From an uncultured bacterium (lineage in GTDB: Bacteria > Omnitrophota > Omnitrophia > Omnitrophales > Aquincolibacteriaceae), in the NCBI GenBank assembly GCA_964562525.1, contig CAZLTL010000003.1, forward strand, positions 4,115 to 68,114: 64,000 nucleotides of DNA, written 5' to 3'. The notes under the pieces are model-generated. The model did no database searches, was not told where the DNA came from, and saw only the letters and a list, made by a program, of their open reading frames with translations. Shown here piece after piece: positions 3,185 through 57,807 of the stretch (the stretch's first letter is position 1; each line of letters opens with the position of its first letter). Position numbers and translations under genes: made by a program.

Positions 3185-6100
3185 TTAAGCTGAAGTCATC
3201 ACACGGCGGGCTGCCGCGGAGAAAAGCTCCAGAACGGAAGATAAAAGGAAAATCCCCTCGCCTTTTCGGATCTGGAGATGCTGAATCCAGCGCGCAAAAC
3301 CTGTTGCCCATGCCGCTTCGATTTCATCCGTCCGCGTGGCGGCAAAAAAGGCCATCGCCTCCGGCACTAGTGCAAAGGAAACTTCGGTCGGCAAACTTTC
3401 AGCAGATAAGTTTCTCTGCCACGCCATACCTGCCAAAATTTCTCGCGCGCCAAACACACCATAATGATCGCGCCATTTAGCCGAGTTAAAAACATCGGTT
3501 GCCAACTGCCCCATAGCCTGAGGACCGTACATTTTAACTTGTTTGAGCTTGCCAAACTTCTTTTCAAAAGTGGCGCGCTCATAGTCGGTCCTGAAAACCA
3601 AAGCAAACCGATATTGCTTGGTACTTTGCCCCGGATACAACGTCTCAAATGATTTTTGAGTCAGCTCAATAAACTCGATCAGCTGAGATTCAATTTCAGG
3701 GGAGTAAAAAATAACCGGAGCCGTTTTTGGGATTTGCTTAGCGGCAATCGCATCTTTCCAACGAGTCAGAGCTTGCTGCCACAAAGCTTTTGCTTGCGGC
3801 GAAATTTGCCGCGCCTGCTGAACCAACCGAACCTCAATCGCCGTATCCGCCGCCATTTGCGCTTCAAGCCAATCCTGAAAACGAATTTCATCGTCACGCT
3901 CCTCGCTGTAAACAGGAGTCACCGCGTCTGAACCGATCCAAATCCCCAAATCTCGCGTTTCAGATCGGTGCACAGACCGAATCAATTCAACTAAGTCTTC
4001 GCGTGTTCCTTCTTCCTCCCACAATCGCTTAAGCTCATCGAGCTTTGCTCTAAAAGGATTCCAAACTTCAGTGCTGTTTAAATACATTTGTAACAAAAAA
4101 TACACCCCCAGCGTTTCGTATGGAATCGGTTTATCTTCAGACTCACCTGCATCATCTAAAAATATTTTTGAACTTTTATATTTTTCAAGATTCGCAGAAT
4201 TGCTGTCTGATTCAATCAACATTAATAAATCAAGTGTGCGCAAAACAATCGAACCATCACTAACAATCTCGTCGGGTGATAGCTCACGTTTGTACAAAAA
4301 CCCGATATCGTTACCAAAGCGATGCTCATTCATCCAACTGTTAAATGATATTTTAATTACAGACTCAGAAGCATCTTCAGTTTTCATCAGAGTAAATGCT
4401 TCTATACCAACCGTCATATCTTCCAACTCGCCAATAATGTGTTTTATCCGCCTCAGCTTATCTTGCAATCGCTGCCCATCTGCACGAGCTTCCGAGCGGC
4501 CGATATTAAAAATGTAGGTATTCGTTCCCGAGCCGTTAGGAAATGTCATCACACGCGGGTCGCCGAATTTTTCCTTGAGCATTTCAACATCAAGCTCACC
4601 TTTCATATCCGGCTGAGCGCCGTAGAGTACGAAATAGGATCCTGCCGGCGCATTTTCAATGCGTTCCAGCAATTGGCTGCGATGCTTCATATTCTCCAAA
4701 CCGGCCGAACCGCCCGCAAAATAATAATAAATCCGTTTTCGTTCAGGCTCGATTTTACCGTTGAGTGTAATTAAATTTATTCTCGAGGCATCCAAAAAAT
4801 TGCCGTTGATAGTCGCTATTTTTTCCGAAGCGTACTGTGATGATGCGCCAAAACCGATCCTTTGCCGTTCAAATTCGACGGTAAAACGATCAATTAGCAC
4901 TTTGCCGTCCGCAAACAAGGATTCATCCCCTTCGATTCCCACGGCTTTGTGCACGCCCAGATGCGCGGCAACAATCAAAGAAGTATTTAATCCGCTACCT
5001 AAATCGATGAAATCATGCTCGCCGGTTACGATGGGTTTCAAAGCCTGAATCACTTCGTCCATAGGCGAAGGAACAAAAATACCTGCCCACGTTTTTTTCC
5101 AAACAGATGGCAAACCGCCAAGTAAAATTTGATACTTCTGGGCCAAGATCGGCTTGGAGACATCTCTCAGCAAATCAAAAAACCATTGGTCATCCGCGCT
5201 GAGATTCATATCCCGCACCTGCCCTGAGTGCGTCGAACGGGTTTCAGAACGTTCATTTGACTCGGGGAATTGCAAACTAGAGTCAGGCTGATTAAATTCA
5301 GAATCGAATGCGCCGCCGGATCGATATAAATTTTTAATTTTTATAAAAAAAGAAATGCCTAGAGCTGTGAATCCAAAAACCGACATGGCCAACGGGATCA
5401 AACGCAGCCATGAAACTCCATTCAAAGTCAAAGAGAGAGCACTAACAACTACCCCAAAAAAACCAGATAACATCATCGGTATGCGCCAATCCATGAGCTC
5501 CGCCATCCAATCAATATTTTTTATATTTTGATTATTGGTTTGATTTAAGTCTGTGGCTTTTAACTCAACCCCGGCTATTGCTTCAACTATCTGTTCGACC
5601 ACTTGGACAACAGGGTTCAGAGGCCACATTCCGGTTATTTTTTCACCGCTAAAGTCACGATCTAATTCGGGCGCATAGGCTTCATCCAAAGCACTGCGCT
5701 CACGGGCAATTTCCGGAGTCATCGCATGAAAATACTCGTGGCCATATTCTTGTAAAGGAGTGTAGTCATGACTTGTATATCCCGTCTGCAAAGTGCGAAA
5801 CTTTGTGAGCACATCATAGTCACTGCCCTCTTCTCGAGCCTGCCCCCTGCGGAATACAAGCCCTATTTTTTCCGCATTCTCAGGTGATAAGCCAACGTAT
5901 CCTTTCTCAAAAAGCTCGTTGAATAAAGGACGTGCGCCAGGAGTTGCATCGATATCGCGATACATCGCATGCGATTCGAGTTGTCGTCCCGTTACATCAA
6001 CGTAAATAGGCTGAAGACCGGGATACTGAACAACCTGAACGACATGCCGAAGATAGCCCCCAAACACTAATGAAGCTCCGTGAATCGTTGATTTAATTTT

Positions 6101-9100
6101 TCCTGCGGATAACGAATAAAGACTGCGATGAAAACTAAGCGATGAAGACGTGCACCACCCCACCATAAAGTCTGCGGATAAATACAAAATGGGGTTACGA
6201 AATTGAATACCTGCAAGATGTGTCGCGGGATATTGATCCGAAGCCCACTTTCCATTATGAACACTCCAACTTGCCGTTTCGCCCATATAGGGCCCGGCAT
6301 GCTTCAATAGGGCCTCCCAAGATTCGTAAACCGCTTGCCGAATAATGACTTCAAGATCGTCTTGTGTCACTTTTGCGTCTGCTTCAAATAAACGAAAGAC
6401 GCGTTCAACCTCCGCAGCAGGCGGGGCCTCCACAATCGGCAGAGGTCCTTGTTTATTCATTTCGCTTAAGAGCGCAGTTTCTTCAGTTTCTGAAAGTTGA
6501 CGATCATTAATCCCCATGTATTTTTTGGGATGAACCGAAGTCCGTGTTTCGGAGCGTTGCAGCTTCACCGCGGAAATAACCCAATAATCTTTTTTGCTAT
6601 CGGTCAAATCGAACGAAATACTTTGGAAGCCGAAATCCGATAATGCGTCTTTAATTTCATCTTGGCTGTATTGACGATATTGAAACCCCTCAGCCAATTT
6701 GGATTCAGGCGGATAAGTCATGATAAAAATACTTCCGCCCGGTTTTAATACGCGCGAGGCATCTTGAACGGCACTTTTTAAATCTAAATGCCCGATGCTT
6801 TCGGGATAAATGACCGTGTCATAACTTTGCTTTTGAAACGGTAAAAGCTCCCCATGCGCGACAACCGTTATGATTTGACTTCGCACACCTTCACTCTGGT
6901 TGATAATTTGCAAAAATTCAGGCAGAACATCCGTCCCCGTCACTTCCGCCCCATACCGCCTAATCAAATCGCCTTCAAGCGCACCGATGCCGATTCCGAC
7001 AGAAAGAAGTTTTTTACCGCGGCTTCTTGCTCCTATCTGATCCGCCACATACTGTCTCAGCTTTGGATAACGAAGCAACGAACTCATATCTGCCCGAACA
7101 TAACCCGGATCAATGCGAGCAAAAGGCCCGTAAATTCTTTGGGTCTGCCGGACATTCTTTAAGATGCGTTTAACGTCAACGGCCCGTCCCGCCCTGGTTA
7201 ATTCTTCTGCGACTTCATGTGCAAAAGCTTCCGCGGGGCGGCCCAAAATATAAAGACGAACCGCGGCAGCGAGAATGACAGCGAGATAGTCTTTTTGTTC
7301 ACGCTTTTGGATGTGACGGCTCTCAAAAGCATTCATAACATCCTCTTTCAATCCGCGAAGATCTGAAAGCGTGTAACTCATACTCTCAACTTCTGTATAA
7401 ATCTCATCCAATTTCCCACGCATTTCGGAGCGGTTTAATTTCAAAACAAGGCTTTGCGGGTTTTCCGTCAGCTCAAATCCGAGGCGTTGCAACGGCACGG
7501 CAAAAACAGAACTCTGACGGGCTTCTTCGGCAGATAAATAGAAAAATAAATCTTCCGGCTTAGGATTAAAGTAAGTGCTGAAATAAATTTTTAAAAAATC
7601 AACTAAGCGGCGTCCATGCCCTTGACCACGGTAACCAGGTAACCCCGCTTCAGGTTCAAAAATTTGAAAGCGCAGCTGAAAGCTTTTTTCACCGATGCGG
7701 TTAAAAACAACATAACCAAGAATCGGAATATCTTGATCACCAAAAAGGATAATACCACCCAGATTGTCACGCCGACTCCAACGATAGAAACGGTTGTAGT
7801 TACGTTTACCGCTAACATCTGTTCCATGATCCCAAATAAAAGCGCGAGCATTGGTGTGAAGCACATCTTCATGATCAAGCGGTATGTCAGCCCCATCGCG
7901 AGCCATAGCAAGCCCGCGCCTTCCAAGCTCTTGAAGCAACTTTTGAAAAAATGCCTGTGATTCTTCAACACTAAAAAGATGGCTTTTAATTTCTGGGGCA
8001 CTCTCAGGTATGTGAGCTTGCGATGGCTTATTGAGAACTTCTTTTTTTAGAGCTGTCAAAGCGTAATAACCTACCGTTATTCCGATCAAGGCTATACTTG
8101 CAGCCACGATTGAAAGTGCCGAAGCTCCGCCCAAAATAAATATCAGTCCGACAACTGAGAGATTCACCCGCAAGTAAGTTTTAAGATCAAAACTGGGCTT
8201 TTGCGAATTCACCATATAGTTACGGAACAGCTGCATGAAAAGACCGAGGGTAAAAATAGTGGGTATGCGTAATAATTCCGGAACAATATCTTGTGCGATG
8301 TGATGCTGTGCTAGGAGCACGGGCAAACGCCCCCAAACACCTTTAAGATCTTTGCCCCACTGACTGCGAGTGGAATATGCGGCCTGAAGCTCGTCGATTT
8401 TATCCGGTGCCACATCTCCGCGTGTTTTTATTTCTGCCACACCGCGACGATTCCAATAGCCATTGAAGTAAACCGATATTAGGCTACTGAATGATACGCC
8501 GACAAAACCGCTGATTGCCGCGCGCAAAAGTGGCGAAGTAAATAAATCAACCCAATAAACATTGGCGGCAAATGCCACCACGCCCGTCAAAAATCGCACA
8601 CCCATAAATGCTGTAAAACGCTTTTTGACATGATATTGGTAAGCGGGATAATCACTGATCAGCTGCGTGTAATAATCTGCAATCGCCCCGGTCACAGAAG
8701 CGATCAAACCCGAAGCAACCAAGCTTCCCAACGCAAAATCGCCCCAGTAAAAAGAATTGATCCATGAGTAAAGGTTAAAGATAAAAGGAAAGCCAAAATA
8801 CCAGCTCGCAAGCTCAATCAATCCCCACGCCACCGCGCCTATCGCAATATGAAGATAAAACCGTTTTTTTGAAATTTGTTTATCAGAGGCAGCAACATCA
8901 GAGTATTGTTGATTAATCTTACGTACTTCAGAACGACTGACAACAATCACCTTCCAACCTTGATCATGCAAATAGCGCATTCCAGCAAGGTTATTGCGAC
9001 TCGCAACGACAGCGGTAAAAACATCATCATACTGAGATCGGTCGGGACCATTACGAAAAACCGTGGTAAAAGCAACATGAAATCCCTGCTCTAAAAGAAC

Positions 9101-12100
9101 CCGCACTGCGGCATAATTTTGATAATGATCGGACGCTACATAGACAAGCCCATCATCTTTCACAAGCTGTGCAGCCATCTCCGTAAAAACAGCCATATTC
9201 CCCGCTCTGGGGGTCGGCGAATTTACAGATACAAAATCCATCGAGCCCTTTCCGTGCTCCTTTAGAAATTCTTCATTGGTTGAATGGGCATCGTAATTTT
9301 CAGTTCCAAACATCTGAATTTGTAAGCCGGCTTTTGCAAAATAGGTTTGTGCTTGCGGTAAAAACCAACCCTCCCCCATCCCTAAATCAACGCCCTTTAA
9401 CTTTGGCCGCCCGTCAAATTGAGCCTTAATCAACCGCACAAAATCGGGAATAGGATTATTAATATCCGCCGACAATTCTCCTTCGGGCCACAGCATATCC
9501 ACACCCTCTTTAACTGTCGAAACAACGGTCGCAAAAGCATCCGTTGCTTTGGTTTCCTTCTCACCTCTTGCTTCAGAACGGTTCGCGGTCGTTCGCTGCT
9601 TCAGATCTTGAACGGGTAGAATCCAGTGCTGGGCCTTTGTTTTTTTAAGGAAAGCGTCAACGCGCTTATGGGTCACATCTTTGTGAGCGTGAATATCAAG
9701 AAAAAGCCGATCGGCTTCTTCTTTGTTGTCAGGTGGGTAATAACCGCGTGAAAGATTAAAAAGTACCCGTAAATAAAGATCCCCCAGACGAGATTTCGTG
9801 ATTTGGCTTTCCGCATCCACACGAATATGAATAGGGTTACGGCTGACCAGTCCCGCTAGCCAAGCGTTATACAAATCGTGCGTCTTAAATGCATATTTAC
9901 TGGTACTGTGGTCACGGTAAGCTTTAAAGACATTGAACGCAGCATTAATCGAGTGTGTTTTGATCCCATCTTTGTCCTTAAAAATTTGATAGATTGCATA
10001 AGCCACGGGCGTTCCGCGATCACTCGCATCTTTAAGATCAATCATATTGAAAAAAGTGACGCCGTAAACATTGCCCGGCAAAACAGGAACACTGACCATT
10101 TCCAACATTAACTTGCCGGGCTTAAGTGAATACAGGGTATGTCTTGCGTCTTTGGCGTTATCACGCATTGCGGTAAAATAGCTATGGTCAAAATAGTTTT
10201 CCATTTCAGGTGCCCCGCGCACCGCTTGCGCGAAACGCGTGACCTCCTGATGCGCTAATTCCTCGGCCAATGCATCGGACCGCACATTGGGCAAACTGCG
10301 AATTATTTTCAATCTCAGCGCGTCGGCCTGCTCTGATATTGTCATTTTGGATTTGGCAGCGCGAGCCTCAGAACGGCGGACAGGAATTCGAACTTTGACT
10401 TCGTTTACTAAGTTCTCAGGCAAGGGCTGAAAACCGCCCATTCGCATGAGATAGTTTCGACCGCTTAATCCTTCGATAAAAACCCGCTCGCCGTAGCGCT
10501 TTTGCTGATTGCGGTGAAATGCTTGCGCTTCTTCGGAAGGATCAACTTCAATCCATACCTCCGAGATACCTCTTTCCTTCATGTCAGAGAAAAAACGGTC
10601 GCGTAAACGGGTCGCTAACTTTAGGCCCTGCCGCCGCCACTTTTTAGCTACAAATAATCCGGTTGTGCGGACGCGCCCTGATGTTCCGCTCAAAAGACTA
10701 TCGTAAGCCTGCACCGCGGCCAATTCAGGCTTGCCATACTTGCCGGTTATTTTCCATTTAGAACTTACGTAAGCAATCCAGGCATAAGGCGGAATGCGCA
10801 CAGCCCATTCCTGCGAAAATTCAACGGCCTTTTGTTTTTCTTTCAAACTGAGGTCGGAATACTTTGCAAATGTAATTTTGTATTCATGATCCGCATTTTT
10901 CAAATCTGAATATGCCTGAAGTAATTTAAAAATCAACGCGCCCGCGGTAAAAACAACCGCAGCCGCGACAAAAGCAACCCCAAAGATAACGCCCCAAAAA
11001 GCGAATCCAAAAAAAGTTTTAAAAGCAAACCTGGCATCCTCCGTTTTATCGAGCCATTCGGGCTTATTTTTTTGTTGGATTAACTGCGGCCTGCTTTCAC
11101 CCTCACGCGCCTCCGAGCGCTGATAAATGCTGCGCGTCAATCCGGCAAGTTCCGAGACATTCACCTTAATTCCATCTCCCCAGCGAAAAGGCTTGATCGC
11201 GATATAGTTCGCTTTATGATTAGGAAAAGATTTCAATTCAACCAACGTTTCATCTCCGTTGGCTCTCTCAAATCCAATCTCATTCGGACCGTACCCGCGA
11301 AGATAAACAGCTTCCTCCTTTTGCCCATTCAAAAAAGCCTCCGGCTCAGAGCCATTGGTCGCCAAAGTAAACCACCCGCCCGTATAGGAAACACGCACAG
11401 ACTCAAAATGCTCTCGCATGACTCCGTCCGCATCCGCTTCGACCACAGCAAAACGAAACTCGCGCCCATCTCCCGTCCCTTGAAAAAAACGATCCGGAAG
11501 CATAAGCTCGAAATCACGCGGAATCAAAACTGCATCTTGATTTTTAGCTCCAAATTCCGAAAGAGTTTCAGCAAGGGAAACCGCATCGAACTTACTCGGG
11601 CGAACGGAAAGCTGTAAATCTTCAAAACGCCAAAGACGCGATTCCGAACGCCGCAAGGCGGGGCTGCGGATCTCTTCCCATGTAAGATTGCTTCGATTAA
11701 GAAAATCTTGAATTTCTTGAACAGCTTGATCGAGCCCCTGATTCATGGCTGCAGTTAATTCGGGTCGAACCCGTTCGCGAACTTGACGGCGATGATCTCC
11801 GTCGCGTGCTGCAACCAACGCGTTGAGTGCGTACTCCAGACGAAGCCATTTTTGGGCGGGCACGGTTCGCATTCGAGCAAAATACTTTTCGACGCTTAAA
11901 TGCTTTTCATCCGCATAAATATCTTTGAGATGAATGGTTGAAATCAAACTGTCCACCGCTTCTACATTTTCGTGAAAATCATCGACCAGTAGCGCATGGT
12001 CTTTGGCGATACCTGCAGATTCAAGATGCTTTTGAATAGCTTTCAGCTTTTCTATGCCCGCCCCATCCGTAAAAAGCCAATCCGTAATAGCACCTTCCCC

Positions 12101-17371: not shown

Positions 17372-17570
17372 ACGTCTTTCGGATTTGAATCAGCCAAACC
17401 ACTTTAAACAAGCCATTTATAAAGACCTTAGAAATCGATTATTGCTAAAAATTAACATACTCCTCCGTGAATACAAATTGGACGAAAATTTAGCTTGGCG
17501 TTAGGGCAAGATGATCAGCCTTGCTATATCCTGCTTCCCCCGTCTCAGATACGGGATCTGGGATGGGGGT

Positions 17571-20610: not shown

Positions 20611-20720
20611 CGTTTTTCACATCGCCTTCCGGCCGTTTGACATACATTTTGACACCCCGCAAAAGGGTATGCTATAGTTTCGCCCGTTATCAAGCACTTT
20701 ATCTAAAAGGAAATGACACT

Positions 20721-20996: not shown

Positions 20997-21001
20997 GTCT
21001 T

Positions 21002-22691: not shown

Positions 22692-22695
22692 TTGT

Positions 22696-51200: not shown

Positions 51201-54200
51201 GCATCTGAATCGCAGGGTCGATTTCTATTTCTTGCAAAAATCGCTGCCCTGTTAACGGCGACTCGCTATTGCTAAAGTGTTTTACGGCCTTAATCTGATC
51301 GCGGAAATGAAGCCAAGAACCATCTTTCAAGGAACCAAGCCATTCTTGCTGCATCGATTCATAAACATCCGCTGGAATTTCTCTTGCTTCAGAGCGGCGG
51401 CGGTTCGGCTTAGATTTTCCGGGCGGCTTTAACCCAAATGCGCGCCGCGCATCCATCCCGGTCAATTGCTTTCCTAGGGCGGGTTTATTTTTAAAATTAA
51501 AATCGTCCAGAACATGCTCTTTTAAACTTTGGAAAAAGCCCTTCTCCTCAAAGAATACACTCTTAGCTATACGAAAAAATAAGTACGCGACCCAAAAAAT
51601 AAATCCGCCACCCACAATCGAGGCAAGAGTGACTAAAAGATAAAAAAGACTTCGATCGCGGGGTTTCACCTCAAGAAACTTCCCATCAGACTGAATCTCA
51701 GCAGCCAATAATTTGGGTCCGGGCAATATTCCATCCCCTTCCTCAACATCGAAGTAAATCTTCCCGTCTGATTCAAACCGAGCGTTGATGGTCAAACCTG
51801 AAAACTCACTACCGGAAAAAACCTTGAGTTGATTCCGCTTAAACCCACGCTGAGTAAGCAAATCAGAAAAAACCTCGGGCAAGCTAATCGGAGATATCCC
51901 ATTCGCATAAATATAAAAAACTCCGTTGCCAGGAGTAATTCCATTTTCTTTAAGAATCCTCGCAAGATTGTCCGCATAAGTTTCCATTTCAGAATCCGAC
52001 AAAAGCTCGTCTGTTTCCATATTGCTCGGATAAACATGCGCTAAAACAGCTGGCATACTTTTCTGATCGGAGTGCGCCATCACAACGCAACATTGGTTAC
52101 CTTGAATAACATTAGTAAAAAACGAGCCGTCCTTAACAATAGTCACTTCATTCTCCGTGACCATTCGCGGGCTAGGATCGTCATTGCGCAGCTCGCCGGT
52201 TGAAAGCCGATATGTTTGGACGCCCGATTCAGCGCGCAACTCAGAAATGCTAACCATTCCCCAAACCGAGGCAATCGCTAAAGATTTGACGACCTTGGGT
52301 AGGATTTGAGCAAAAGCAAATCGAGCCATATCTCTCACTTCTGAACGGCTCTTCGAATCTGCTCTAGCTTTACCTTTAGGTTTCGAGACTGTCCTTCGAG
52401 CTTCTTTCTTTAAATCCTTTTCCGTCTGCTGAGTCAATAAACCAAAATGATAATTCTGACTACCTATGTTCTTCAGCACCCAATCACGAGCAGACCTATA
52501 AAAAGCAGTCCACAACGACTTATAAAAATCATGCCGCTGTTCTTTTGATACTTTTTCCGCGGCATTTTCTGCCTCTTCATTTATTTTCCACAAAAAACTC
52601 CGGGCCAAGCGATAACCTGCTTTTACAGGGTCTCTTATCGCTTGAATTGCCGAAGGACTCATTTCAAAGTAAAGTTTTGCCTTCAGCGGCTCAAAACGGA
52701 TATATGCCCAATAAGGTAAGCCACTCAATAATGCATAGAGCACTGCTAGTACATCAGCAAACCATTCGTGCGCAGCCTTACGTTCAACTGTTCCCGAGTC
52801 AAAACCCCATTGATCTAGCATTTGGTGCCCGAGCTCGTGAACAGCACTCATAATTGCCTGGGATGGCGAGACGGAACGTAAAAATCGACTGCCAAACTCA
52901 TTATGTGAATTGGCATTGTCCCAACCCCATCGAAGGCTTCCACGCATAATTCCGCTGACAACTTGTCGTTGTAAATCTGAGTGAGGCAACCAAAGCAATC
53001 CCTTGCTGCGTAGATCTAAATAAACCGCTGTAATAAAAACTTTCAACTCCTCATCACCCAATGGACTCCGCAAAATACGGCGCACCTCGGGTGCGGAAAC
53101 ACCATCTTCGGGATACTCATCCTTCACAAATTCCTTTAAAAATTCCGCAGAAGGTTTCTCTAATAGAGTTGACGTCTTCACATATCCGCCGTGCTTTTGC
53201 AACAAGCCAAAAGCATAAAGTCTTAAATGAGTGATTACCGAGGAGTCTTCTGCTATTTTTTTTAAGAAGGTAATTTCGTTTTTAAAATGCCGCAAAAGCA
53301 CATATCCCGCAGCATGTTCATAACCATGCAAACTTTTTAAATACGCTTGAGCGGATTCATTGGGCAACCGGCTCTCAATTAACTGGGCTAACTTTGTGAC
53401 TTTTTCAGATGGAACAAAGTCCCTTAAGAGATGCCCAAGTATCAAACGCAACCGACGATGCGCGTTGATCTGAACTTCACTTTTCCTCTGCTGAAATAAA
53501 CGGATTTCATGTTCAATTAGGCTGGAAAGAAATGAACGCGAAAGCCCTTGAACTTCGTCTCCCACACTTCCATCTTGAGCTAGGCCCGCAATCACGGAAA
53601 CAGCATTTCGATAAGGCAACTGTATCATTATTTCTTTCATCAACTTTGCGACAAAGTCATGATCAAAGCTCTTATCTTCAGACTGACGAATGCTATCCAA
53701 ATAACCCTGAGCTTTTGGTAGTTTAAAAAACTTATCATTGGCAAGCCCTTGCAAATTCGGCCACTCATCAGAATTAACCCTTACTGCTTCGTTCAGAAGC
53801 TCAAATGCGGCACTCCGCTCAGCAATGTCATACGTTTTACCGTATCGCAATGCATTAACAGCTTTTTTGATCGAATCAGCCGCATAATCCTGAAATTCTC
53901 TAACGTTGCTTTCTCCGTTTTGATTCAGAATTTCAAACACACCAGGGCTTTGAATCATCCACCGCACCATGTGAAAACGCAGGTTAGCGTTCAATAATCT
54001 TTCGGCGAATACTGAAGCGGTTGTTGTATCGCCAAGAAGAATCAATCGGGCATACTTGGTAAAATCATCCGGCTCTACTTTCTCCATAAGAAGAAGCAAA
54101 TCAACAACAGCGCGAATATCCTCATCATTAGCATTTCCGAAACTTTTGCCTGTTTCAATAAATTGAATGAGTCCACGCAACATCTCGCGTCTTACCGATC

Positions 54201-57200
54201 CCGCATAATTCTCTGGGTCCTTCAAAATCATCCTTACAACACCAGAGAAGTCTCCATACGCAGTAAACAGCATCGAATCCCCACGCCCCGCCTGTCTAGC
54301 TTCCGAACGGCCTAATCGCGAATTATCAAAAACAAAGTCATAATTTATATCCGGCCCATAAAACAAATACTCATTTGCATATTCAGCCCACTCACGGATT
54401 TGTTTCTGAATCACATCCGGGCGCATTCTTGCCAACTCGGAGTTAGGATTTGATTCAATTCGTTGACGAACCCGTTTCTCTAAACCGGACTGAACAGTCG
54501 ATTGGTCTGTGGCCACATGAACTTTAATGTCAAACCAATCATCACGACGATCCAATCCATTATTTCGTGACCCAAAAAGATAATATCCCTCCACAATAAC
54601 AGCCTGAGCGTTCGGATGAGATCTCAAAGCTTCATCAATAGCAACCCTAAGCATTTGCGGATTGGCGCCTTTCTTTGACGGCAGCAGATAATCATCCATA
54701 TGAATCACAACATATTCATTATTCCCCTCGAACTGTTTTGAAAATGTTGTTTTTCCCGAACCTTTGGTTCCGTCAATGCCAACCAATATCGGAGTTTCAT
54801 TTTCCAAACGCCTTTCACGAACAGCCGCTTCCAAAAGTTTACGAGCCTCCCGCATTGAATGAATCTGAATATCCTCACCTAAGTAGTCTTGAACAATCTG
54901 CTTTGCAGTACGAGTCTCAGAACGCTGAAATAAGGTATGCGACCGTGGTCGATCGGCGCTTCCCCAACGATAAAGAATTTCCCGCAAAATAAGCCGATTA
55001 CGGTCTTGGCGCAAAACTTGAAAGTGATGGTTTAATCTCAAAATACGGTGATCAGATACTCTGCGTGAAGGTGTAATAAATTTCTCTAGCGCAGCCTCGG
55101 CTGTGTCGAACTCGAAAACGTGATGATCCCGCGCTGTAGCGAAAAGCTCCCAAAGACTCATTCTGGAAAGCTCTTCTGACAAACTCCGCTTTTGATCCGC
55201 AGAAAGGCTATTTGGAACAGGGCGGCCTCTCTCATCAATATCATCGGAAAAAATCCACATCTGCGGTGAGCCAAATGTTGCAAGCTCCGCCAAAACTTCA
55301 TCGCGCATATTCGCACCTTGATTCTTATTTAATTCATCAAGACGAAAATCATCAAACGTCGCATAGCCCAGTTGCTGATAGACATCCGCCCTGGTGAGAT
55401 TTTCACCAGGCTCTGCCTGCGCATCTAATCCGCGCAACCAATCTCCGTGGTTCGCCTTAATCTTTTCTGCTTCTTTTTCATTGACCACTTCGATCACGCT
55501 CATCAAAGCCATTGACTGCGCCGCTTGGCGCACAACATAAGCACCCTTTTCATCGGAATAGGCTCTTGCTATTCCAGTAAAAGCCAGCCGTACAGCGTTC
55601 ATTTTCTGATTGATAATTTTGCTGAGTAACTCCGGATTCGATAGCGCGTCATCCCATTTTGTAATACCTCCATCGCGCAAAGCGCTCCAAAAGTCATACA
55701 GAGCTGAACGGTTCAAAGTCCGCGATTTATTCAATGCATCCATACGGAGCGCGAGCATTTGAAAATCAGAATTTTGGGAATCTGCTTTATGCTTTTCCAA
55801 TTCCGAAATCCATTTTGAGTAATCTTCGCGCGCTGATTCCGAAACATTTTCGACACGCGGTTGTGGCGGTAGAGTTAACGCGGCCGACATCAAAACAGAC
55901 GCCTCGGGCGCAAACGCATTTACAAGGACCGCCTCCGCAGCAGTCATGGATTTAAGCAATTGAGTGACACTAGAATGATTGAGTTTTCCGGAAGAATTAA
56001 GCGAACGCAAACCACTTACAAATTGGTCAACTCGGCGAGACAAACGTTCAGCGACTCCTTCCCGGGGACTCCGGTTTCGGCGTCCGTCACGGCTTTGAGC
56101 TTCATCAATAAACTTTGTATATTTCCAAGCGTCCTGGGCGCGTCCTTGATCCGCGAGGTCTCGAATAATTTCATCGCGCCAAACTTTTGCGGCGTCAATG
56201 TCTTGAGACAAAAGCTGGTCGCGGACTGAGCGAGCAAATGCGTCATAAGGGCGAACACGGTTGCCTTCAAATTTAAAATAGGACTTCCACGACACATCAC
56301 CTGCCATGTGCTTGCGATAAGAATTCACTTCCGGTAAACGTTCAATCTTGGGCGTTACGACGGCATACGAAAGTCCTTCTTTTTTAAAGCGTTCCGCCAT
56401 TCCCTGAGTATGAAAACCGCCGGCAACTAAAATGACCGGGCGAGTATCACTCGTGGAATTGGGCAGCATCTTGCGGATATTCCGCATAAACGCTTTTTCA
56501 CGCTCGACCGAGTTTTCATAGAAACTTAAATTGGCTTCCAATAAATTCCAATCTATCAGACGAAGCTCTCCCGCTTCCCCCTCGGAAGAACCCCGTCTGA
56601 TAGATTGAATTTGATTCCATTCGTCATGCGACAATTCCAAACGTGCAAGTTTTTCAACTAAACGGATTTTTTGGCTTTGCTTTTCTGTTACGCGAATAGC
56701 TTCTTTGCGGGGCAAATCTGTTTCACGCTCTACAAGCTCCTGCTTAATTTCGGCCGCGTAAACCTCGAACTCCTTCAAAAGCTTGGTCCCGCGCATGGAC
56801 TCTAAACGCATTTGCATTGCGGATAACTCGCGCAGCGGACGAGAAAACTGGACAGCTAATCCGAGCCCCCCCGCTAATTTTTTAATCTGAACCGCAAACT
56901 CCTGAGCATTCATTGCTCCGGTCTGGTAGGCTTGCAAGCATCGGTTCAATTCCATCAGCTCTTTTTTTCGGCCTGCCGGATTTTTATCTAACCCGGCCCG
57001 GACAACTTCAACGGCCGCCTTCAGCTCCGAATCCTGACCTTGGACATGTTCTCCTTGCTGCTCAACGCGCATGAGCAATTCAACCAAAGAACCCGCTGCC
57101 GGCTTTTTAACCGAGGCCAACACTTTGATCGTTTCGAGAATTTGCGTTTGATTCTCCTCAAAAGCTTCCCAAGCGCGATCCGCATTTAAAAGATCCGGTG

Positions 57201-57807
57201 AATAGTTTTTTTGTTTCGCAAGATTCAAATCTGCCTTAAGCCCTTTGACGCGCGCTAAAACGACACTCTCACTTTCTAACGCGCGGAGATAATCCAATAC
57301 AGCCTGTTCATAAAGCGGCCAATCTTCAACTCCTTGAAAACGAACATCGGTTCCTGCAAAAACGGAGGCTGCGGCCGCGCCGCTCAATTCCGCCCGCTCG
57401 TAATAATCATTAAAGATTTTTTTCAATAATTTTTGATTCGGAAAGCTACGGAAAAATTGAGGGTCCAACTCCGATGACGCACCTTCCAGCGCGACATTTT
57501 TGACTCCATACTTTTTTTCAAAATGGCGAATCAGGGCGTGAATATTTTTCTGCGCATCCGGAATCGCGTGCGCATCCTGAATTAAAATAACTGCTGGCTT
57601 GTTGTCCGCGCCTTCGGTCTTTTCACTAATCTCGCCAAACTTCTCAGGTACTTGCAGTTGGTTTAAATTGAATGGGAGAGAAGTCTTCGATACAGCTTGG
57701 GGCTGAGCTGCGTACAAAACACCGCCATCTCCAATACTTGATAAAAGCATGAAGAGCGACAGAGCCCAAGCCGTCATTTTGACTAGAAAAAATTGTTTCA
57801 TTCTCAT
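39271..57807 (-). CDS. Giant multidomain secreted/membrane protein 2 (6178 aa). Order: signal peptide, TraB/GumN-like N-domain, P-loop kinase, HExxH segment, TM, MidA-like MTase, protein-kinase-like segment, GlnD/GlnE-type NTase, ACT x2, HD, ACT x2, CheR-like MTase. Recurrent RSExR motif throughout
   Basis: Uninterrupted 18.5 kb ORF. MRMKQFFLVKMTAWALSLFMLLSSIGDGGVLYAAQP signal peptide. Motifs verified on the minus strand at several points (see domain features). Confidence 0.85.
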   Translation of the reverse strand: MRMKQFFLVKMTAWALSLFMLLSSIGDGGVLYAAQPQAVSKTSLPFNLNQLQVPEKFGEISEKTEGADNKPAVILIQDAHAIPDAQKNIHALIRHFEKKYGVKNVALEGASSELDPQFFRSFPNQKLLKKIFNDYYERAELSGAAAASVFAGTDVRFQGVEDWPLYEQAVLDYLRALESESVVLARVKGLKADLNLAKQKNYSPDLLNADRAWEAFEENQTQILETIKVLASVKKPAAGSLVELLMRVEQQGEHVQGQDSELKAAVEVVRAGLDKNPAGRKKELMELNRCLQAYQTGAMNAQEFAVQIKKLAGGLGLAVQFSRPLRELSAMQMRLESMRGTKLLKEFEVYAAEIKQELVERETDLPRKEAIRVTEKQSQKIRLVEKLARLELSHDEWNQIQSIRRGSSEGEAGELRLIDWNLLEANLSFYENSVEREKAFMRNIRKMLPNSTSDTRPVILVAGGFHTQGMAERFKKEGLSYAVVTPKIERLPEVNSYRKHMAGDVSWKSYFKFEGNRVRPYDAFARSVRDQLLSQDIDAAKVWRDEIIRDLADQGRAQDAWKYTKFIDEAQSRDGRRNRSPREGVAERLSRRVDQFVSGLRSLNSSGKLNHSSVTQLLKSMTAAEAVLVNAFAPEASVLMSAALTLPPQPRVENVSESAREDYSKWISELEKHKADSQNSDFQMLALRMDALNKSRTLNRSALYDFWSALRDGGITKWDDALSNPELLSKIINQKMNAVRLAFTGIARAYSDEKGAYVVRQAAQSMALMSVIEVVNEKEAEKIKANHGDWLRGLDAQAEPGENLTRADVYQQLGYATFDDFRLDELNKNQGANMRDEVLAELATFGSPQMWIFSDDIDERGRPVPNSLSADQKRSLSEELSRMSLWELFATARDHHVFEFDTAEAALEKFITPSRRVSDHRILRLNHHFQVLRQDRNRLILREILYRWGSADRPRSHTLFQRSETRTAKQIVQDYLGEDIQIHSMREARKLLEAAVRERRLENETPILVGIDGTKGSGKTTFSKQFEGNNEYVVIHMDDYLLPSKKGANPQMLRVAIDEALRSHPNAQAVIVEGYYLFGSRNNGLDRRDDWFDIKVHVATDQSTVQSGLEKRVRQRIESNPNSELARMRPDVIQKQIREWAEYANEYLFYGPDINYDFVFDNSRLGRSEARQAGRGDSMLFTAYGDFSGVVRMILKDPENYAGSVRREMLRGLIQFIETGKSFGNANDEDIRAVVDLLLLMEKVEPDDFTKYARLILLGDTTTASVFAERLLNANLRFHMVRWMIQSPGVFEILNQNGESNVREFQDYAADSIKKAVNALRYGKTYDIAERSAAFELLNEAVRVNSDEWPNLQGLANDKFFKLPKAQGYLDSIRQSEDKSFDHDFVAKLMKEIMIQLPYRNAVSVIAGLAQDGSVGDEVQGLSRSFLSSLIEHEIRLFQQRKSEVQINAHRRLRLILGHLLRDFVPSEKVTKLAQLIESRLPNESAQAYLKSLHGYEHAAGYVLLRHFKNEITFLKKIAEDSSVITHLRLYAFGLLQKHGGYVKTSTLLEKPSAEFLKEFVKDEYPEDGVSAPEVRRILRSPLGDEELKVFITAVYLDLRSKGLLWLPHSDLQRQVVSGIMRGSLRWGWDNANSHNEFGSRFLRSVSPSQAIMSAVHELGHQMLDQWGFDSGTVERKAAHEWFADVLAVLYALLSGLPYWAYIRFEPLKAKLYFEMSPSAIQAIRDPVKAGYRLARSFLWKINEEAENAAEKVSKEQRHDFYKSLWTAFYRSARDWVLKNIGSQNYHFGLLTQQTEKDLKKEARRTVSKPKGKARADSKSRSEVRDMARFAFAQILPKVVKSLAIASVWGMVSISELRAESGVQTYRLSTGELRNDDPSPRMVTENEVTIVKDGSFFTNVIQGNQCCVVMAHSDQKSMPAVLAHVYPSNMETDELLSDSEMETYADNLARILKENGITPGNGVFYIYANGISPISLPEVFSDLLTQRGFKRNQLKVFSGSEFSGLTINARFESDGKIYFDVEEGDGILPGPKLLAAEIQSDGKFLEVKPRDRSLFYLLVTLASIVGGGFIFWVAYLFFRIAKSVFFEEKGFFQSLKEHVLDDFNFKNKPALGKQLTGMDARRAFGLKPPGKSKPNRRRSEAREIPADVYESMQQEWLGSLKDGSWLHFRDQIKAVKHFSNSESPLTGQRFLQEIEIDPAIQMLGKDDAVYLTLTNYSEGQDSLVAHQLQRTILVLKKSALQNLVDAKTGEFRSLSLYGDRTDSDPSILARFSWGDIWTKRGGRVLREPKLSWTSDLTTGYQSGKTALAYMNFLEDKYAPLNTIYEVTISNRGVEAYLHKQFPQTKEYFLNQKSQGLWIDLFGEKEINRLVDRKSESEIPTHRYVFRMGRSEMRLVEDSQAEIEVAIDQAGGLIPYVQFQELALYGKYGYYSAGAVQFEQIGGTDDVGVQFHTNAHIPAIGRALADQFLNTWKAMGEPDHFDIVELSGGDGSMAHNVLETILMAEEKYPERFWNSLHYRIVELNEVLIKRQQKTLASLKRVLRDRLSWQNASALHTGLGEKSVNGVIYSNELPDAFAVHRVVVRGGKLKEIYVAYNESGFYEKEGDLSLAAKDEIEAYFKLVGGLPPEGKEFAVNLAMNQLMAEISRTLNQGIVLTMDYGFEKTSHRFESDTVNSVWTFGDRDGEPPLKLGVDTTHNIDFQTLQKMGKIFGLNDSEVVFLPHYLGRFGYVGSTANPQEYVLAQARGLDVSVFQKKRSEMRELERNNDFSDRPGRPIQSDLFVDKEVYDLISPEDREVVEGVLSFGEHAENMKRFGDRGVRAIGTSGNTNMTRSVIIPLAKPVVFKGVVYNAAIAKGIRLDSYDDESVRQLPLKAAGQPLEKVDVLDGRIVYGPEGAQALGGLPWTQANEETAAAQFLHFDPNGFHYSSAYPLAKGKISNKYLQTENVRVDLGYELQLVQAQLVVNQFGAIQHDEIRAHRQLIDQVYDFEKFLISGKQGNVAAAVTEVRKVIQKSAEMLREMQKIGKHGSFNLTNIAVWNDQIFAIRDLTHFKRWKNIKTFEDRFAYAFLDFKTLVLGYRDAFASAARRVQQMGISEEDEIEILKLHGKLFFEAFIDGYFSPELRQDARAVFEPYLLKGDFEGLSRKLQQISDLSTESRLAELDDSVIQLLYRELERDLKIVNRSELRFDHQRQDFMDWAKDFKKQYLGEITAILAKPDLEISPEQKSKELSILSDKKIGIIFDLASTFVEGLAGHEADWPVALVATGTYARNELARGSDRDGLMLYPRGADEESYKPLLDYFYYAMLNGLNFSAGWPQIASDDIETRNLTAEEMTEMIDARPVAGSETVVKEFNQKYHRYLQSDFKNPTKDPELEDIKTNVQFLIRHLIKFWQENRVKRGFYDGIFEREPNLKWGAGGFRDMDFSRWILQVMDHRSEEEKALHPKMIAEEEMREAEEAYRYLRTVRWMLHEERVKQKKPLTEKTADILSFEFQQAIAGQLYPEIADPQARLEKMVSRLQSSSQALYLFASNIFRRALHQTSSLNYTPLGDDGKPKWVKGLEADGIELVKRTGKTVFLDTGLKHVVDQVTLTIHPDHVLKSENILNLLQYAVEHKLAMTGELLDEMTRRLPDFSEWVKANPESARTQFLKLRETPQALGYLIFRMHALGLLEDLIPAFGEISSKATLDIKHRETLDIYAIKSLGVMDQILGLKFWEDKPHALVEKVQSEAEFVKNKPELLRSIRDALLVQPLADFMPEQVQILIKQLGYGEESQKSNLVWLIENRDALINFIRRGGMNDPQMFKELRDQKLEGNYERWVLLLLLTVTRMDFFNLGRKKIFSEVLQPLMGLTESQFKNDKELRVRFSQTQHEIQQLAEEGMPEADGKQHKTSVDLALRFIEGSDQFLQVDVVLDPYWNRPGTLLRIAAAFVKHNLSVQNMQIGLVRNGATGDRFIVKLRNPVDGEEMAQVEEKLQTVLREDIKSLIVDPAGKSYQAYLKNRSKIYQPAKPNSGTIPLEVTAENGKKSTFIHLKMEDGPQILFDVARLFERYGLNIMDKSTLDTEGVAEDYKGLRVVDTFEVQKNEGPLDEETIKALIEDMNFLFSSSDRDAAFQNLPSRRSAIHSKIYAEIDELFRVWQSERQYQVYNVKEMEFYFPFARRFFNGRYKSLRNYLDAFYRVTAPWIEELGYADRYDYFRRQVSSLEVGLASSNPYLKDAVRLEDLPPIMTESGVDVIRKDSLPYWADFSRDLNQFIGAMLDHVAQDLGQNFTSRPLFRSEFRILEIPARGHNGEARTINRLVSIQEPGKKVQVTDFISALKQYLQEKQKNQNHAVQFEIGDSFALALRDAIASASAEDSVSENQARRISAQRIFDAFGIDAAVDDAVWALFNAGFWDWLLPDWKILKRQNDGDISPHQYYTARHLVQVLMNSERFAFADAEEEIYAPENVGQYEREFLLEYQKAYRSVAGKGASQLASFRLGELFHDIGKAKEVPTAYAPSHMVLGAQMLPPLFKELQLDTAEIPSWIAMYHQYLNSVLADVLAGRKTFEQMLLELADLPQMDLDYLNMLFMVSMADYLGVFRIPGPPGDVRGLLSEMGLYGKSLQSIYSSNQGAGFLEQNHAVMKLVQIRREMESYLSSPAEAQAKIRQKWEAQIQVDQQKFRDDLAQQGIHPDVLSEFPAWYLMRLHFDSQKRDVSNVVKLDRFYRKLIHPEIQIGIFTIKNHLVVKAMAAFQRVMNQILSKIRSLFLSQMEWLEDIHWNSIMPMHLDTDLYSIHDNRYMNVWVGLPEDRPGLLAAMTAALAARRLNVQQVFVKTINGKVFNHFLVSYKSENFEGELIRSGDLQDQVKSFLREDIQTLMRGDPALFQERLNRYYDDQGIQSFGRQAQEGDQPRIEVEFKNLDGQDGLTYEMKVQSDRDQPWFLHRLTRMIAAMRGNIMSNAQILTRDRGEIDNRIVVSFPVPLSGVQIGSLIALMQSGLSSGITVDDFSSVTQEISKQVAVLRSEVRFPDPVIEPSTVGTTRQLSLLVRHLAQWDRLRGDYKLVQNRADTYLGQIVRNAEEEALQSKGQPEIRVQILGASTGEEAARVYHEINRFLKRDGKNMKGDWKIKITAMEKSQALVESAKRRLAGLESWVASEATLEPEQRAYLDDMMSTLREQADDFRANTHFVAGDMTAFPGGEAGIPHLVLANASLYHLDRNAYQKMMDAIDVNWPQALFAFTDDIPAGSTKEGVLLDFDGVKKATQVRDALREKATKGKLTNHDAVYFEVEERKGRPLRYGIWIPRSNKDSKKVELNMQGKASESASDRSEMRMAEVFEEVVLVADKIIQHADLQEKFKDVSEQRALYKKLFEEILKKQDFFESMLNRFGKREIFENWKAMARSLSDDSFVITLDFDRAAIQVARMVNVMHGVDFFEKQIEKQAPQYVVSSAVVKIKIAVEEINRMKIDESLKNFMRAMYVFGQVSGQSVHDGKFNFEKSWPLLISALEGVLSEQDFSVIFGLQSLIAQRGQKLRLTSMHQLYENFISLSPLNAADRELLLEEMLRVHYFTERRYLLLPEGVQEHLWPLIDSAAKGDFKVEGLSNYRNLVKNRTMTRKLVDASLIVQKWIRENGFDTSRVGYDYGGADAITPLILFDAEVVHIRDILPLTPKQPDRDNPPDSLKEIFMASLATNGYINTELLAAVGSNLAAITWQLEALGAEQIQAPRKGDPARGENSDFDYIDFVWSSDGSAGNSKKRTIIYEQTKIDSDSVANSRNVYEGFSAYLRKAALRTNVPIQAIPFKSNVIVTLKDEGNIPGYKRVAFRDMQGFNFNEALVSKNQPNYADFREGWIYVKEPDVAVKGKLPKWRVGDSVKNIMNGKTYVIDRVDEEQERVHFEGDLPNSFTSFSRLNTGFELARSESREVSAERAIVSRSESRKVVEEVESAPRLLGVFQAEVLALSPQQADSQARQVVSDAERVGFDEYLAAVQKLRDEMVASWEGNQTKQIQNLELFFADVLLQNSKSEVEIALDAPELEIALQQAIQEFAFGDGVRFVLPKTMANLKVPATMVRRVNSLVSAVKKGAPVLLSIFSAGGEGASQKSESIVDLISDEDGFADFNDVQRQKADVLMRMLVAILLSGKVKSRDQMNNIPMLLADAGYFQNIVQALTFKDGRLAVSMNVLMRLAQEYAATKQIQAAA
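42000..42750 (-). other. CheR-like SAM-dependent methyltransferase domain inside giant protein 2 (approximate coordinates)
   Basis: EIRVQILGASTGEEAARVYHEI resembles the CheR RIWSAGCSTGEEPYSIA SAM-binding motif. Confidence 0.45.
44000..44650 (-). other. HD phosphohydrolase domain inside giant protein 2, followed by two more ACT-like domains (approximate coordinates)
   Basis: HQYYTARHLVQV ... LGELFHDIGKAKEV ... HMVLGAQML ... MYHQYL ... MVSMADYLGV. Then GLPEDRPGLLAAMTAALAARRLNVQQVFV and RLTRMIAAMRGNIMSNAQILTRDRGEIDNRIVVSF. Confidence 0.6.
45550..46085 (-). other. Tandem ACT domains (GlnD C-terminal-like) inside giant protein 2 (approximate coordinates)
   Basis: VVLDPYWNRPGTLLRIAAAFVKHNLSVQNMQIGLVRNGATGDRFIV and ILFDVARLFERYGLNIMDKSTLDTEGVAEDYKGLRVVDTFEV. 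Confidence 0.55.
47550..48060 (-). other. GlnD/GlnE-type nucleotidyltransferase domain inside giant protein 2 (approximate coordinates)
   Basis: VALVATGTYARNELARGSDRDGLML (GS/GGxxRxELxxxSDxDL NTase motif). PNLKWGAGGFRDMDF (GlnD PNxKxGxGGLRD motif) about 160 aa later. Confidence 0.6.
49700..50550 (-). other. MidA/NDUFAF7-family (DUF185) SAM-dependent methyltransferase-like domain inside giant protein 2 (approximate coordinates)
   Basis: LYGKYGYYSAGAVQFEQIGGTDDVGVQFHTNAHIPAIGRALADQF ... DIVELSGGDGSMAHNVLETI parallels the MidA LYHPxxGYY...GDFxTSPEIS...ELGPGRGTL blocks. Confidence 0.5.
54300..54800 (-). other. Uridine-kinase/PRK-family P-loop kinase-like domain inside giant protein 2 (approximate coordinates)
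   Basis: ETPILVGIDGTKGSGKTTFSKQF (Walker A of the Udk/CoaA type), VIHMDDY, VIVEG. Confidence 0.55.

Follow-up and report, generated by a model that had tools for sequence, protein, structure and literature searches.

A recurrent RSExR peptide separates enzyme-sized units in giant Omnitrophota proteins and may be a polyprotein processing site

A 64,000-nucleotide stretch of contig CAZLTL010000003.1 from an uncultured Omnitrophota bacterium (the window, analysed at its full length; all coordinates are positions in it) carries two giant genes, giant 1 and giant 2, whose products are punctuated by the pentapeptide R-S-E-x-R (RSExR). The motif is a phylum-wide trait of a protein family and not a peculiarity of these two genes, and on balance we think it probable, judging from sequence, that RSExR is where a site-specific endopeptidase recognises the giants and processes them into separate proteins. 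Each giant open reading frame (ORF) would then be a bacterial polyprotein composed of a general secretory (Sec) signal peptide, a TIKI-superfamily domain, a series of unrelated enzyme units (among them methyltransferases, GNAT acetyltransferases, a P-loop kinase, a HAD phosphatase and a GlnD-like nucleotidyltransferase) and a C-terminal module. In the proposed mechanism, R-S-E-Phi-R (Phi = L/A/V/M/T/S), placed at every junction in a short exposed linker, would be read by an endopeptidase that cuts the chain into separate proteins; some of the released units would use newly exposed twin-arginine translocation (Tat) or Sec signal peptides or membrane anchors, and the TIKI-like head domain would supply the endopeptidase activity.

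Motif counts and codon usage

A regular-expression scan found 14 copies of RSExR in the 4728 aa of giant 1 and 12 in the 6178 aa of giant 2, against composition expectations of 0.106 and 0.149 (log10 Poisson P of -24.7 and -18.7, respectively). None of 2000 shuffles of the giants contained more than 2 copies. An earlier sequence-only reading of the window had counted at least 15 copies in giant 1, one more than the scan or its own list contains, and at least 11 in giant 2, which holds as a lower bound, although its list of 11 omitted RSEFR at residue 4274. The enrichment over composition that it had proposed to check is borne out, with the scan, the shuffles and the Poisson probabilities all placing the counts far above expectation. 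The remaining 22 substantial ORFs of the window contain 0 copies. A six-frame scan of the whole window returned three further copies, about the number expected by chance and none in a credible gene; one lies between leuS and a tRNA-Leu gene (Table 1), and the other two are on the plus strand. The relaxed pattern [KR][ST][ED]x[KR] retrieved the identical 26 sites and nothing more, and single-position near-misses of RSExR occur in the window at chance level.

The richness of the giants in Arg, Ser and Glu (~7% each) is the only point in favour of chance, a compositional artefact or an ordinary repeated domain. That explanation is negligible given the excess of at least 100-fold, the two copies at most in any shuffle, the absence of paralogy between the segments that the motif delimits and its conservation in thousands of distant relatives. 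Internal repeats as the origin of the motif were likewise rejected, as the segments are not paralogous.

Over the 26 window sites, the x residue is A (7), T (5), S (4), M (4), V (3), L (2) or F (1), and is never charged. A relic start codon at this position, suggested by the M/V/L enrichment, was considered and rejected, since the window x codons have no start-codon bias. Site spacing is 177-501 aa in giant 1, with a median of 265 aa, in agreement with the ~250-300 aa previously proposed, whereas giant 2 has a broader distribution (205-1092 aa, median ~366 aa) plus one doublet 15 aa apart. The interval 3185-57807 to which the motif had been assigned does contain both motif-bearing giants, but ~22 kb of motif-free housekeeping genes also lie within it.

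All six Arg codons are used in the motif, together with TCT, TCC, TCG, TCA and AGT for Ser and both GAA and GAG for Glu. Nucleotide information is found only at codon positions 1-2 of R, S, E and R, while the third codon positions and the 30-nt flanks are at background. Because the codons vary and the flanking DNA carries no information, selection on RSExR acts at the peptide level and not on a DNA repeat. The same claim in the sequence-only reading is further upheld by conservation of the sites above control pentamers, described below. Its hope for a longer consensus from flank alignment was disappointed, as no flank conservation was found around the 26 window sites except a weak preference for V/L/I at -2.

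At 25 of 26 sites the motif Ser has a TCN codon, as against 65% of the other Ser residues of these genes, and the codons CGT and TCT are used in excess. Such bias, together with the exchange of cassette blocks whose breakpoints fall exactly at sites, could be taken to indicate a signal read in nucleic acid or during translation, for DNA recombination and cassette exchange, for RNA processing or for 2A-like stop-go; in the last case, co-translational separation would also remove both the compartment problem considered below and the need for a protease. We consider this very improbable. The only nucleotide positions with information are those that the amino acids dictate, Arg appears in all six of its codons and Ser in codons of both families, and nothing upstream of the motif is conserved, whereas known 2A and arrest peptides need ~15-20 conserved upstream residues. 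The TCN bias itself likely reflects drift of position 2 among Ser, Ala, Pro and Thr, all with NCN codons (AGY-Ser being two steps off), because those variants occur in other lineages.

Junctions, cassettes and shuffling

Cutting at the motif gives 15 segments from giant 1 and 13 from giant 2, 28 in all, which are mutually non-paralogous; the sole homology between segments is that of the N-terminal ~520 aa of the two giants, which are 28% identical. Segments with a nameable content are listed in Table 1, and giant 1 has weaker GT2 and DOT1-like matches besides its HAD and GNAT ones. In cassette 6 of giant 2, residue 15 of PDB entry 1zkd aligns to residue 2407, which places residue 1 of the stand-alone protein at the end of the motif. 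No Pfam or PDB match in either giant is interrupted by an RSExR site. Because the nameable segments hold complete enzymes and the GlnD-like unit has no internal site, the motif separates protein-sized units, not every domain. These observations, with the lack of paralogy, agree with the module boundaries proposed in the sequence-only reading; the distance of 30-50 aa it gave from site to next catalytic domain is roughly right, the observed offsets running from 0 to ~116 aa. A megasynthase of the non-ribosomal peptide synthetase or polyketide synthase type was rejected, as condensation, adenylation, thiolation and ketosynthase domains are absent from the Pfam and PDB matches and the segments are mutually unrelated.

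The boundaries were examined family-wide with 662 BLAST alignments, each pairing cassette regions from two family members (the family, whose members carry P numbers, is described below). Alignments start within 40 aa of a site in 61% of cases compared with 19% in the null, and cross a site in 19% compared with 49%. Within giant 1, the blocks at residues 1903-2602, 2810-3318, 3314-4306 and 4046-4297 are 79-93% identical to parts of P0003 and P0004; a site lies no more than a few residues from where each block ends, and the adjoining cassettes are unrelated. The N-domains of giant 1 and P0003/P0004 are only ~52% identical. Since blocks of such high identity adjoin cassettes without a homologue, next to much more divergent N-domains, the pattern points to recent exchange of cassettes between giants, with breakpoints at the motif.

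The sites themselves are retained during divergence. All four fixed residues are kept at 29%, 31%, 74% and 89% of aligned internal sites in the identity bands <30, 30-40, 40-60 and >60%, and control pentamers are kept at 1%, 3%, 10% and 45% in the matching bands. Family-wide, the flanks are enriched in P/S/T/A from -6 to -1 and in D/E/T/S/P from +5 to +13 and have a dip in hydrophobicity, a linker-like composition suggesting that the sites lie in short exposed linkers. The median interval between sites is 290 aa, and 9% of the intervals are doublets less than 40 aa apart within linkers, some of them overlapping (RPELRSEMR). Doublets inside linkers are what redundant recognition sites would look like, and they do not suit a structural element belonging to each unit.

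A family sharing the head domain and the motif

A profile of the shared N-terminal region (the N-domain) was searched against 1.84 billion representative proteins, matching 7564 representative clusters at E<=1e-3 and 692 at E<=1e-30. The matched region always occupies residues ~1-600, and most of the top 150 proteins are 2000-8000 aa long. Members share a layout of signal peptide, conserved ~560-aa N-terminal domain, variable enzyme-sized cassettes and ~260-aa C-terminal module. A scan of GTDB species genomes located 63 loci, with several paralogous ones per genome; nearly all the loci that have a named organism belong to Candidatus Omnitrophota metagenome-assembled genomes, one is labelled uncultured Planctomycetales, and the rest are labelled 'uncultured bacterium'. 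Close relatives at NCBI carry no annotation beyond 'hypothetical protein [Candidatus Omnitrophota bacterium]'. A word-indexed homologue search missed the N-domain even with a 17-sequence alignment, and its negatives are unreliable for this family; a genome-contig scan with the whole of giant 1 as query gave no match.

Motif statistics were collected for 151 family proteins totalling 491 thousand amino acids (kaa), in which RSExR occurs 769 times against 12.5 expected, a 61-fold enrichment. At the 63 Omnitrophota loci, ORFs of at least 700 aa carry 1.44 copies per 1000 aa and smaller ORFs 0.067. The x residue is L, A, V, M, T, S or I, most commonly Leu. The minor variants RAExR, RPExR, KSExR and RTExR dominate some genomes and tend to be used consistently within a genome; 11 proteins with non-RS variants were available for comparison with N-domain sequence. 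NAExR was rejected as a junction variant, as it is part of a conserved FYxNAExRD inside the N-domain. This segment (giant 1 residues 401-408, window ~16147-16170) contains A-E-x-R and thus resembles the junction [S/A]-E-x-R.

The variation at the second position also bears on the proposal that RSExR is a modification site that marks or regulates the units without cutting, by phosphorylation, O-glycosylation or AMPylation of Ser or by methylation or ADP-ribosylation of Arg. A strict short consensus in exposed linkers would suit such a role, and the giants carry kinase-, nucleotidyltransferase- and methyltransferase-like cassettes, including one of the COG1565/Methyltransf_28 family, whose mitochondrial relative NDUFAF7 methylates protein arginine. 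We nevertheless rate it improbable. No modifying cassette is common to all members, the TIKI-like hydrolase domain being the only part that is; different lineages have S, A, P or T at the second position, so that Ser is dispensable and Ser-directed modification is excluded as the general function; and homology blocks and signal peptides that start at the site would be left unexplained.

The C-terminal module that follows the last site has a family-wide median length of 283 aa (interquartile range 247-300). The final residue is Ala in 123 of 151 proteins, with tails such as KAA, ASA, QAA and KSA, and the family alignment contains no invariant residue inside the module. A C-terminal beta-barrel of the autotransporter type was rejected, as the module is not barrel-like and lacks invariant residues. 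Apolar tails ending in -[A/S]-A resemble those recognised by tail-specific (Prc/Ctp-type) proteases or ClpXP.

Targeting signals after the sites

The signal peptide at the start of both giants is of the classical Sec type, having a positive n-region and A-x-A. Across the family, the 40 aa before sites are 6-fold depleted in strongly hydrophobic stretches, and the region 5-45 aa after sites is 2.5-fold enriched in them. In P0031, P0032, P0035, P0070, P0095 and P0098, canonical Tat signals (S/T-R-R-x-F-L, h-region, A-x-A) start 2-25 aa past sites, as in RSEAR-dnrlqgs-SRRYFLGLCLKSFAFASVAGLPSVVLAQS and RSELR-l-TRRSFFPAAAAGAAAFYATVTGASAQE. The region after sites is 16-fold enriched in Tat-type signals, and 2 of the 4 remaining internal ones follow RREAR or RFEAR. 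Sec signal peptides, too, begin after some sites. Tat signals normally function at a free N-terminus. With Tat and Sec signal peptides beginning 2-25 aa after sites, the cassettes look like independent pre-proteins, and we regard the post-site Tat signals as the best indirect evidence of a cut at or near the motif.

Two of the Tat-signal cassettes, P0032 residues 1009-1389 and P0095 residues 673-1213, contain HExxH motifs (HELFH and HEIDH). One HExxH cassette has a weak match to DUF5700, a putative zinc peptidase; a Pfam scan of the Tat-signal cassettes found nothing. They may be exported metallopeptidases carried as cargo.

An uncleaved junction element is another explanation of the motif. 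According to it, the giants are intact membrane-anchored multi-enzyme assemblies, and RSExR is a docking or organising motif, bound for instance by a chaperone, a scaffold or the N- or C-terminal module, or a charged R/E/R strand face that caps the units. A preprint (10.64898/2026.06.07.730766) presents Omnitrophota giants as intact inner-membrane-anchored proteins and makes no appeal to cleavage. The location of the motif in linkers is compatible with this, R-E-R at i, i+2 and i+4 would fit one face of an extended strand, and interspersed transmembrane-like segments suit a polytopic protein. A structural cap, however, would not form doublets 4-40 aa apart in linkers, nor would canonical N-terminal-type Tat and Sec signal peptides follow it. 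The flanks have no conservation that would fit a docking fold, and within the window R, S and E are never exchanged for K, T or D, a strictness expected of a site recognised by an enzyme more than of a linker. An uncleaved chain is thus unlikely in our estimate, and we retain the endopeptidase site as the preferred explanation.

The N-terminal domain as a candidate protease

Among the enzyme-like parts of the family, the N-domain alone is conserved in all members. At a pairwise identity of ~21-25%, 150-151 of 151 sequences keep D74, H76, Q82, E104, E156, R408 and H434, and Y161, Y402, G431-G432, Y465 and W475 are invariant or nearly so. An AlphaFold2 model built from a 17-sequence alignment has a pLDDT (predicted local distance difference test score) of 80 and is predicted to adopt a TIKI/ChaN/EreA/RRSP-like alpha/beta fold with a parallel beta-sheet core, the two halves being separated by a ~240-residue helical insertion. 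The best structural matches are Bcr135/136 (2rad, 2qgm), HopBA1 (5t09), a TraB-family protein (8bqs_DQ), RRSP (5w6l), EreC (6xcq) and PMT (2ebf); Foldseek matches for the model were not significant. PF04187 matched 3 of 17 members with E = 0.003-0.018 (15.5 bits compared with a cutoff of 27.7 bits), no curated model reached threshold (PF04187, PF01963 and PF05139, with nothing from NCBIfam), and a PDB profile search with the N-domain found nothing.

The Bcr135, HopBA1, TraB, RRSP, EreC and PMT proteins belong to the TIKI superfamily, which has a 2His/2Glu catalytic set with a His-Glu pair 28 residues apart (Bcr135 H85/E113; RRSP H3902/E3930); the RRSP set also includes E3900 and H4030, RRSP has been shown to be a site-specific endopeptidase, and Tiki is cited as a representative TIKI protease (PMC6254334). 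By residue spacing, H76 and E104 of the N-domain are likewise 28 residues apart, D74-x-H76 parallels E3900-x-H3902, and H434 parallels H4030; the first acidic residue is Asp where the superfamily set has Glu. We thus propose the TIKI-like head domain as the leading and most economical candidate endopeptidase for RSExR, an assignment that the topology problem discussed below holds at the level of a tentative nomination.

Weighing the processing model

The sequence-only reading had offered three roles for the motif: a protease processing site, a recognition tag for a modifying enzyme and an inter-module linker. The evidence favours the predicted protease/polyprotein role, because Tat and Sec signals follow some sites, doublets sit in linkers and all members carry the TIKI-fold domain.

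Several points weigh against processing at RSExR. Cleavage itself, the bond that is cut, the compartment and the enzyme are all inferred from sequence. P0028, P0052, P0067 and P0131, each longer than 3000 aa, have few or no recognisable sites and an intact N-domain signature, and the catalytic-type residues are invariant in all members, these included; site-poor long members may use a different junction signal, or none. A cytoplasmic cut between E and Phi with Leu as x would create an N-degron. Single transmembrane-like stretches occur in ~7% of cassettes and would place the sites of an uncut chain on both sides of the membrane; a rule of even numbers of transmembrane segments per cassette, which would keep all sites on one side, was looked for and not found. 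The N-domain, which follows a Sec signal peptide, is predicted to be periplasmic, and this is hard to reconcile with post-site Tat/Sec signals and cofactor-dependent enzymes of cytoplasmic type that argue for separation in the cytoplasm, and this conflict weakens the N-domain as candidate protease. A separate cytoplasmic protease may make the cut, the head domain may act before export, or the whole chain may be delivered into another cell.

Genomic surroundings and feature map

The window contains 24 substantial ORFs, all on the minus strand, of which the giants are two. Around them lie housekeeping genes that belong to a diderm bacterium (uvrC, murJ, holA, lptE, a gene for a BamD-like TPR protein, comEC, leuS, surE, a bactofilin gene, sua5, frr, pyrH, tsf and metF), along with tRNA genes. 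A jumbo phage with prohead-protease sites, which the one-strand gene order and PHROG matches had raised, was rejected on account of these neighbours, the lack of any DNA match in 50,697 phage records and the bacterial type of the leuS sequences behind the 'phage' matches to leuS.

The giants are depleted in cysteine, with 5 Cys in 10,906 residues compared with ~0.7% in neighbouring genes; the average over 151 family proteins is 0.07%. Such depletion would suit chains that stay unfolded or cross an oxidising compartment.

Table 1 Giant genes, RSExR sites and other features of the window (g1, giant 1; g2, giant 2; CDS, coding sequence; aa, amino acids)
Feature	Position	Strand	Description
Giant 1 CDS, 4728 aa	3185..17371	-	signal peptide, TIKI-like N-domain, 13 variable cassettes, C-terminal module; 14 sites; 2 Cys; identical to family protein P0001
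g1 aa 1-560	15692..17371	-	Sec-type signal peptide (~aa 1-31, ...DAQA|AP) and N-terminal domain; invariant D74, H76, E104, R408, H434
Site g1 aa 778 RSETR	15026..15040	-	
Site g1 aa 1089 RSELR	14093..14107	-	
Site g1 aa 1414 RSESR	13118..13132	-	start of homology block common to P0003/P0004
Site g1 aa 1607 RSEAR	12539..12553	-	
Site g1 aa 1908 RSESR	11636..11650	-	93%-identical block common to P0003 begins
Site g1 aa 2085 RSEAR	11105..11119	-	30-aa hydrophobic anchor-like stretch 34 aa downstream
Site g1 aa 2333 RSEAR	10361..10375	-	
Site g1 aa 2598 RSEAR	9566..9580	-	93%-identical P0003 block ends
Site g1 aa 2813 RSEVR	8921..8935	-	block common to P0004 begins
Site g1 aa 3314 RSEMR	7418..7432	-	block boundary with respect to both P0003 and P0004
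Site g1 aa 3606 RSETR	6542..6556	-	
Site g1 aa 4041 RSETR	5237..5251	-	
Site g1 aa 4292 RSEAR	4484..4498	-	blocks common to P0003/P0004 end
Site g1 aa 4469 RSETR	3953..3967	-	final giant 1 site, 259 aa before C-terminus
g1 cassette 5, 301 aa	11642..12544	-	HAD-type phosphatase, weak match
g1 cassette 7, 248 aa	10367..11110	-	N-terminal hydrophobic anchor and GNAT acetyltransferase, weak match
g1 cassette 11, 292 aa (aa 3317-3608)	6548..7423	-	complete class I S-adenosylmethionine (SAM) methyltransferase
g1 C-terminal module, 257 aa (aa 4472-4728)	3188..3958	-	homologous to C-termini of P0003/P0004/P0005; ends ...TSA
g1 shared blocks	~9566-11665, 7418-8944, 4454-7432, 4481-5236	-	shared with P0003/P0004
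Giant 2 CDS, 6178 aa	39271..57807	-	architecture as giant 1; 12 sites; 3 Cys
g2 aa 1-590	56038..57807	-	signal peptide and homologous N-terminal domain, 28% identical to that of giant 1
Site g2 aa 962 RSETR	54910..54924	-	
Site g2 aa 1167 RSEAR	54295..54309	-	
Site g2 aa 1821 RSEVR	52333..52347	-	
Site g2 aa 2138 RSEAR	51382..51396	-	
Site g2 aa 2389 RSEMR	50629..50643	-	residue 1 of stand-alone COG1565 homologue maps to ~aa 2393
Site g2 aa 2755 RSEMR	49531..49545	-	
Site g2 aa 3182 RSELR	48250..48264	-	
Site g2 aa 4274 RSEFR	44974..44988	-	absent from the list of the sequence-only reading
Site g2 aa 5001 RSEVR	42793..42807	-	
Site g2 aa 5306 RSEMR	41878..41892	-	AGA AGT codons
Site g2 aa 5897 RSESR	40105..40119	-	first of tandem doublet, 15 aa apart
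Site g2 aa 5912 RSESR	40060..40074	-	final giant 2 site, 266 aa before C-terminus
g2 tandem site ARSESREVSAERAIVSRSESRK, aa 5897-5916	40060-40119	-	two motifs 15 aa apart
g2 cassette 2, 205 aa (aa 965-1169)	54301..54915	-	P-loop nucleoside/nucleotide kinase-like
g2 cassette 6, 366 aa (aa 2392-2757)	49537..50634	-	complete COG1565 / Methyltransf_28 methyltransferase
g2 cassette 8, 1092 aa (aa 3185-4276)	44980..48255	-	multi-domain GlnD-like unit (nucleotidyltransferase, GlnD_UR_UTase, ACT), no internal site
g2 C-terminal module, 264 aa (aa 5915-6178)	39274..40065	-	in main family cluster of C-terminal modules; ends ...AAA
Extra RSExR copy MSRTGSRSESRNF	34151-34165	-	leuS / tRNA-Leu intergenic; in no ORF >= 30 aa; consistent with chance

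Significance

Giant proteins are a hallmark of the uncultured, host-dependent Omnitrophota. According to those who described them, it is not known whether such giants remain single chains or are cut, and missing cleavage points block structural analysis. A phylum-wide junction peptide provides a candidate cleavage map for thousands of proteins, by which the giants can be divided computationally before their structures are predicted and their units annotated. A TIKI-fold domain is nominated with it as a new candidate protease for a five-residue site, and might serve as a tool protease. If cleavage were refuted, the motif would still define the modular grammar and the shuffling breakpoints of the giants.

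In its most far-reaching form, which we put forward as a tentative possibility, Omnitrophota would express a sizeable part of their accessory proteome in the manner of RNA viruses, from many paralogous polyproteins in which a TIKI-fold head cuts at R-S-E-Phi-R, dozens of enzymes are released, some are exported by Tat or Sec, and cassettes are shuffled at the cut sites. If true, cellular organisms would use virus-like polyprotein expression on a large scale, a strategy of gene expression and protein diversification not known in cellular organisms.

Comparison with known systems

Like the giants, the viral polyproteins processed by picornavirus 3C, potyvirus NIa or flavivirus NS2B-NS3 encode many unrelated proteins in one ORF with a short strict junction peptide, carry a protease or protease-like domain in the same chain and are under selection on the peptide and not the codons. 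The giants differ in residing on a cellular chromosome among housekeeping genes, with many paralogues per genome and hypervariable, shuffled cargo, and in that their processing is only predicted. Their candidate protease has the TIKI fold, whereas the viral proteases are chymotrypsin-like or papain-like.

MARTX toxins are also giant bacterial proteins with arrays of unrelated enzymes, and their effectors are released by processing in linkers, which occurs at Leu. One of these effectors, RRSP, is a TIKI-family endopeptidase; in the giants, the TIKI-like domain is the conserved head and not cargo. Pfam scans of the giants and cassettes found no RTX repeats, cysteine protease domain or type I secretion architecture, and a Sec signal peptide is present instead. 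The giants would work like a viral polyprotein or a MARTX toxin and belong to neither class. No conserved neighbouring protease, secretion gene or dedicated partner was found.

Polyvalent proteins of phages and conjugative elements, reportedly described by Iyer et al. in 2017, are said to concatenate many enzymatic domains, with processing by embedded peptidases proposed. The giants, in contrast, are not in a mobile element, as their neighbours include uvrC, murJ, holA, lptE, leuS, sua5, frr, pyrH and tsf.

Described counterparts from the same phylum, with which the giants overlap, are the 'multi-enzyme metabolic cluster' giants of Omnitrophota (Nielsen & Lui 2026), which have tiled methyltransferase (PF08241), GNAT (PF00583), HAD and nucleotidyltransferase domains with signal peptides or transmembrane helices. 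Proteins of at least 10 kaa (Nielsen & Lui 2026 preprint) and of >30 kaa (West-Roberts et al. 2023 preprint) have been catalogued, while the giants here have 4.7 and 6.2 kaa. A junction motif, a conserved head domain and cleavage sites are unmentioned in the 2026 preprint, the 2023 giant-gene preprint and a 2023 Nature Microbiology paper, and nothing relevant to an RSExR motif, its cleavage or a protease for it was found in the literature searched. Set beside the TIKI / TraB-PrgY / EreA / ChaN / RRSP superfamily, the N-domain carries [D/E]-x-H, an E 28 residues on and a further H, a pattern that by spacing parallels those of Bcr135 and RRSP; the literature searched held no description of this superfamily fused to a giant cargo chain. 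We rate the motif, the TIKI-like head and the scale as what is new here, within the known kind of the processed polyprotein or multi-effector chain.

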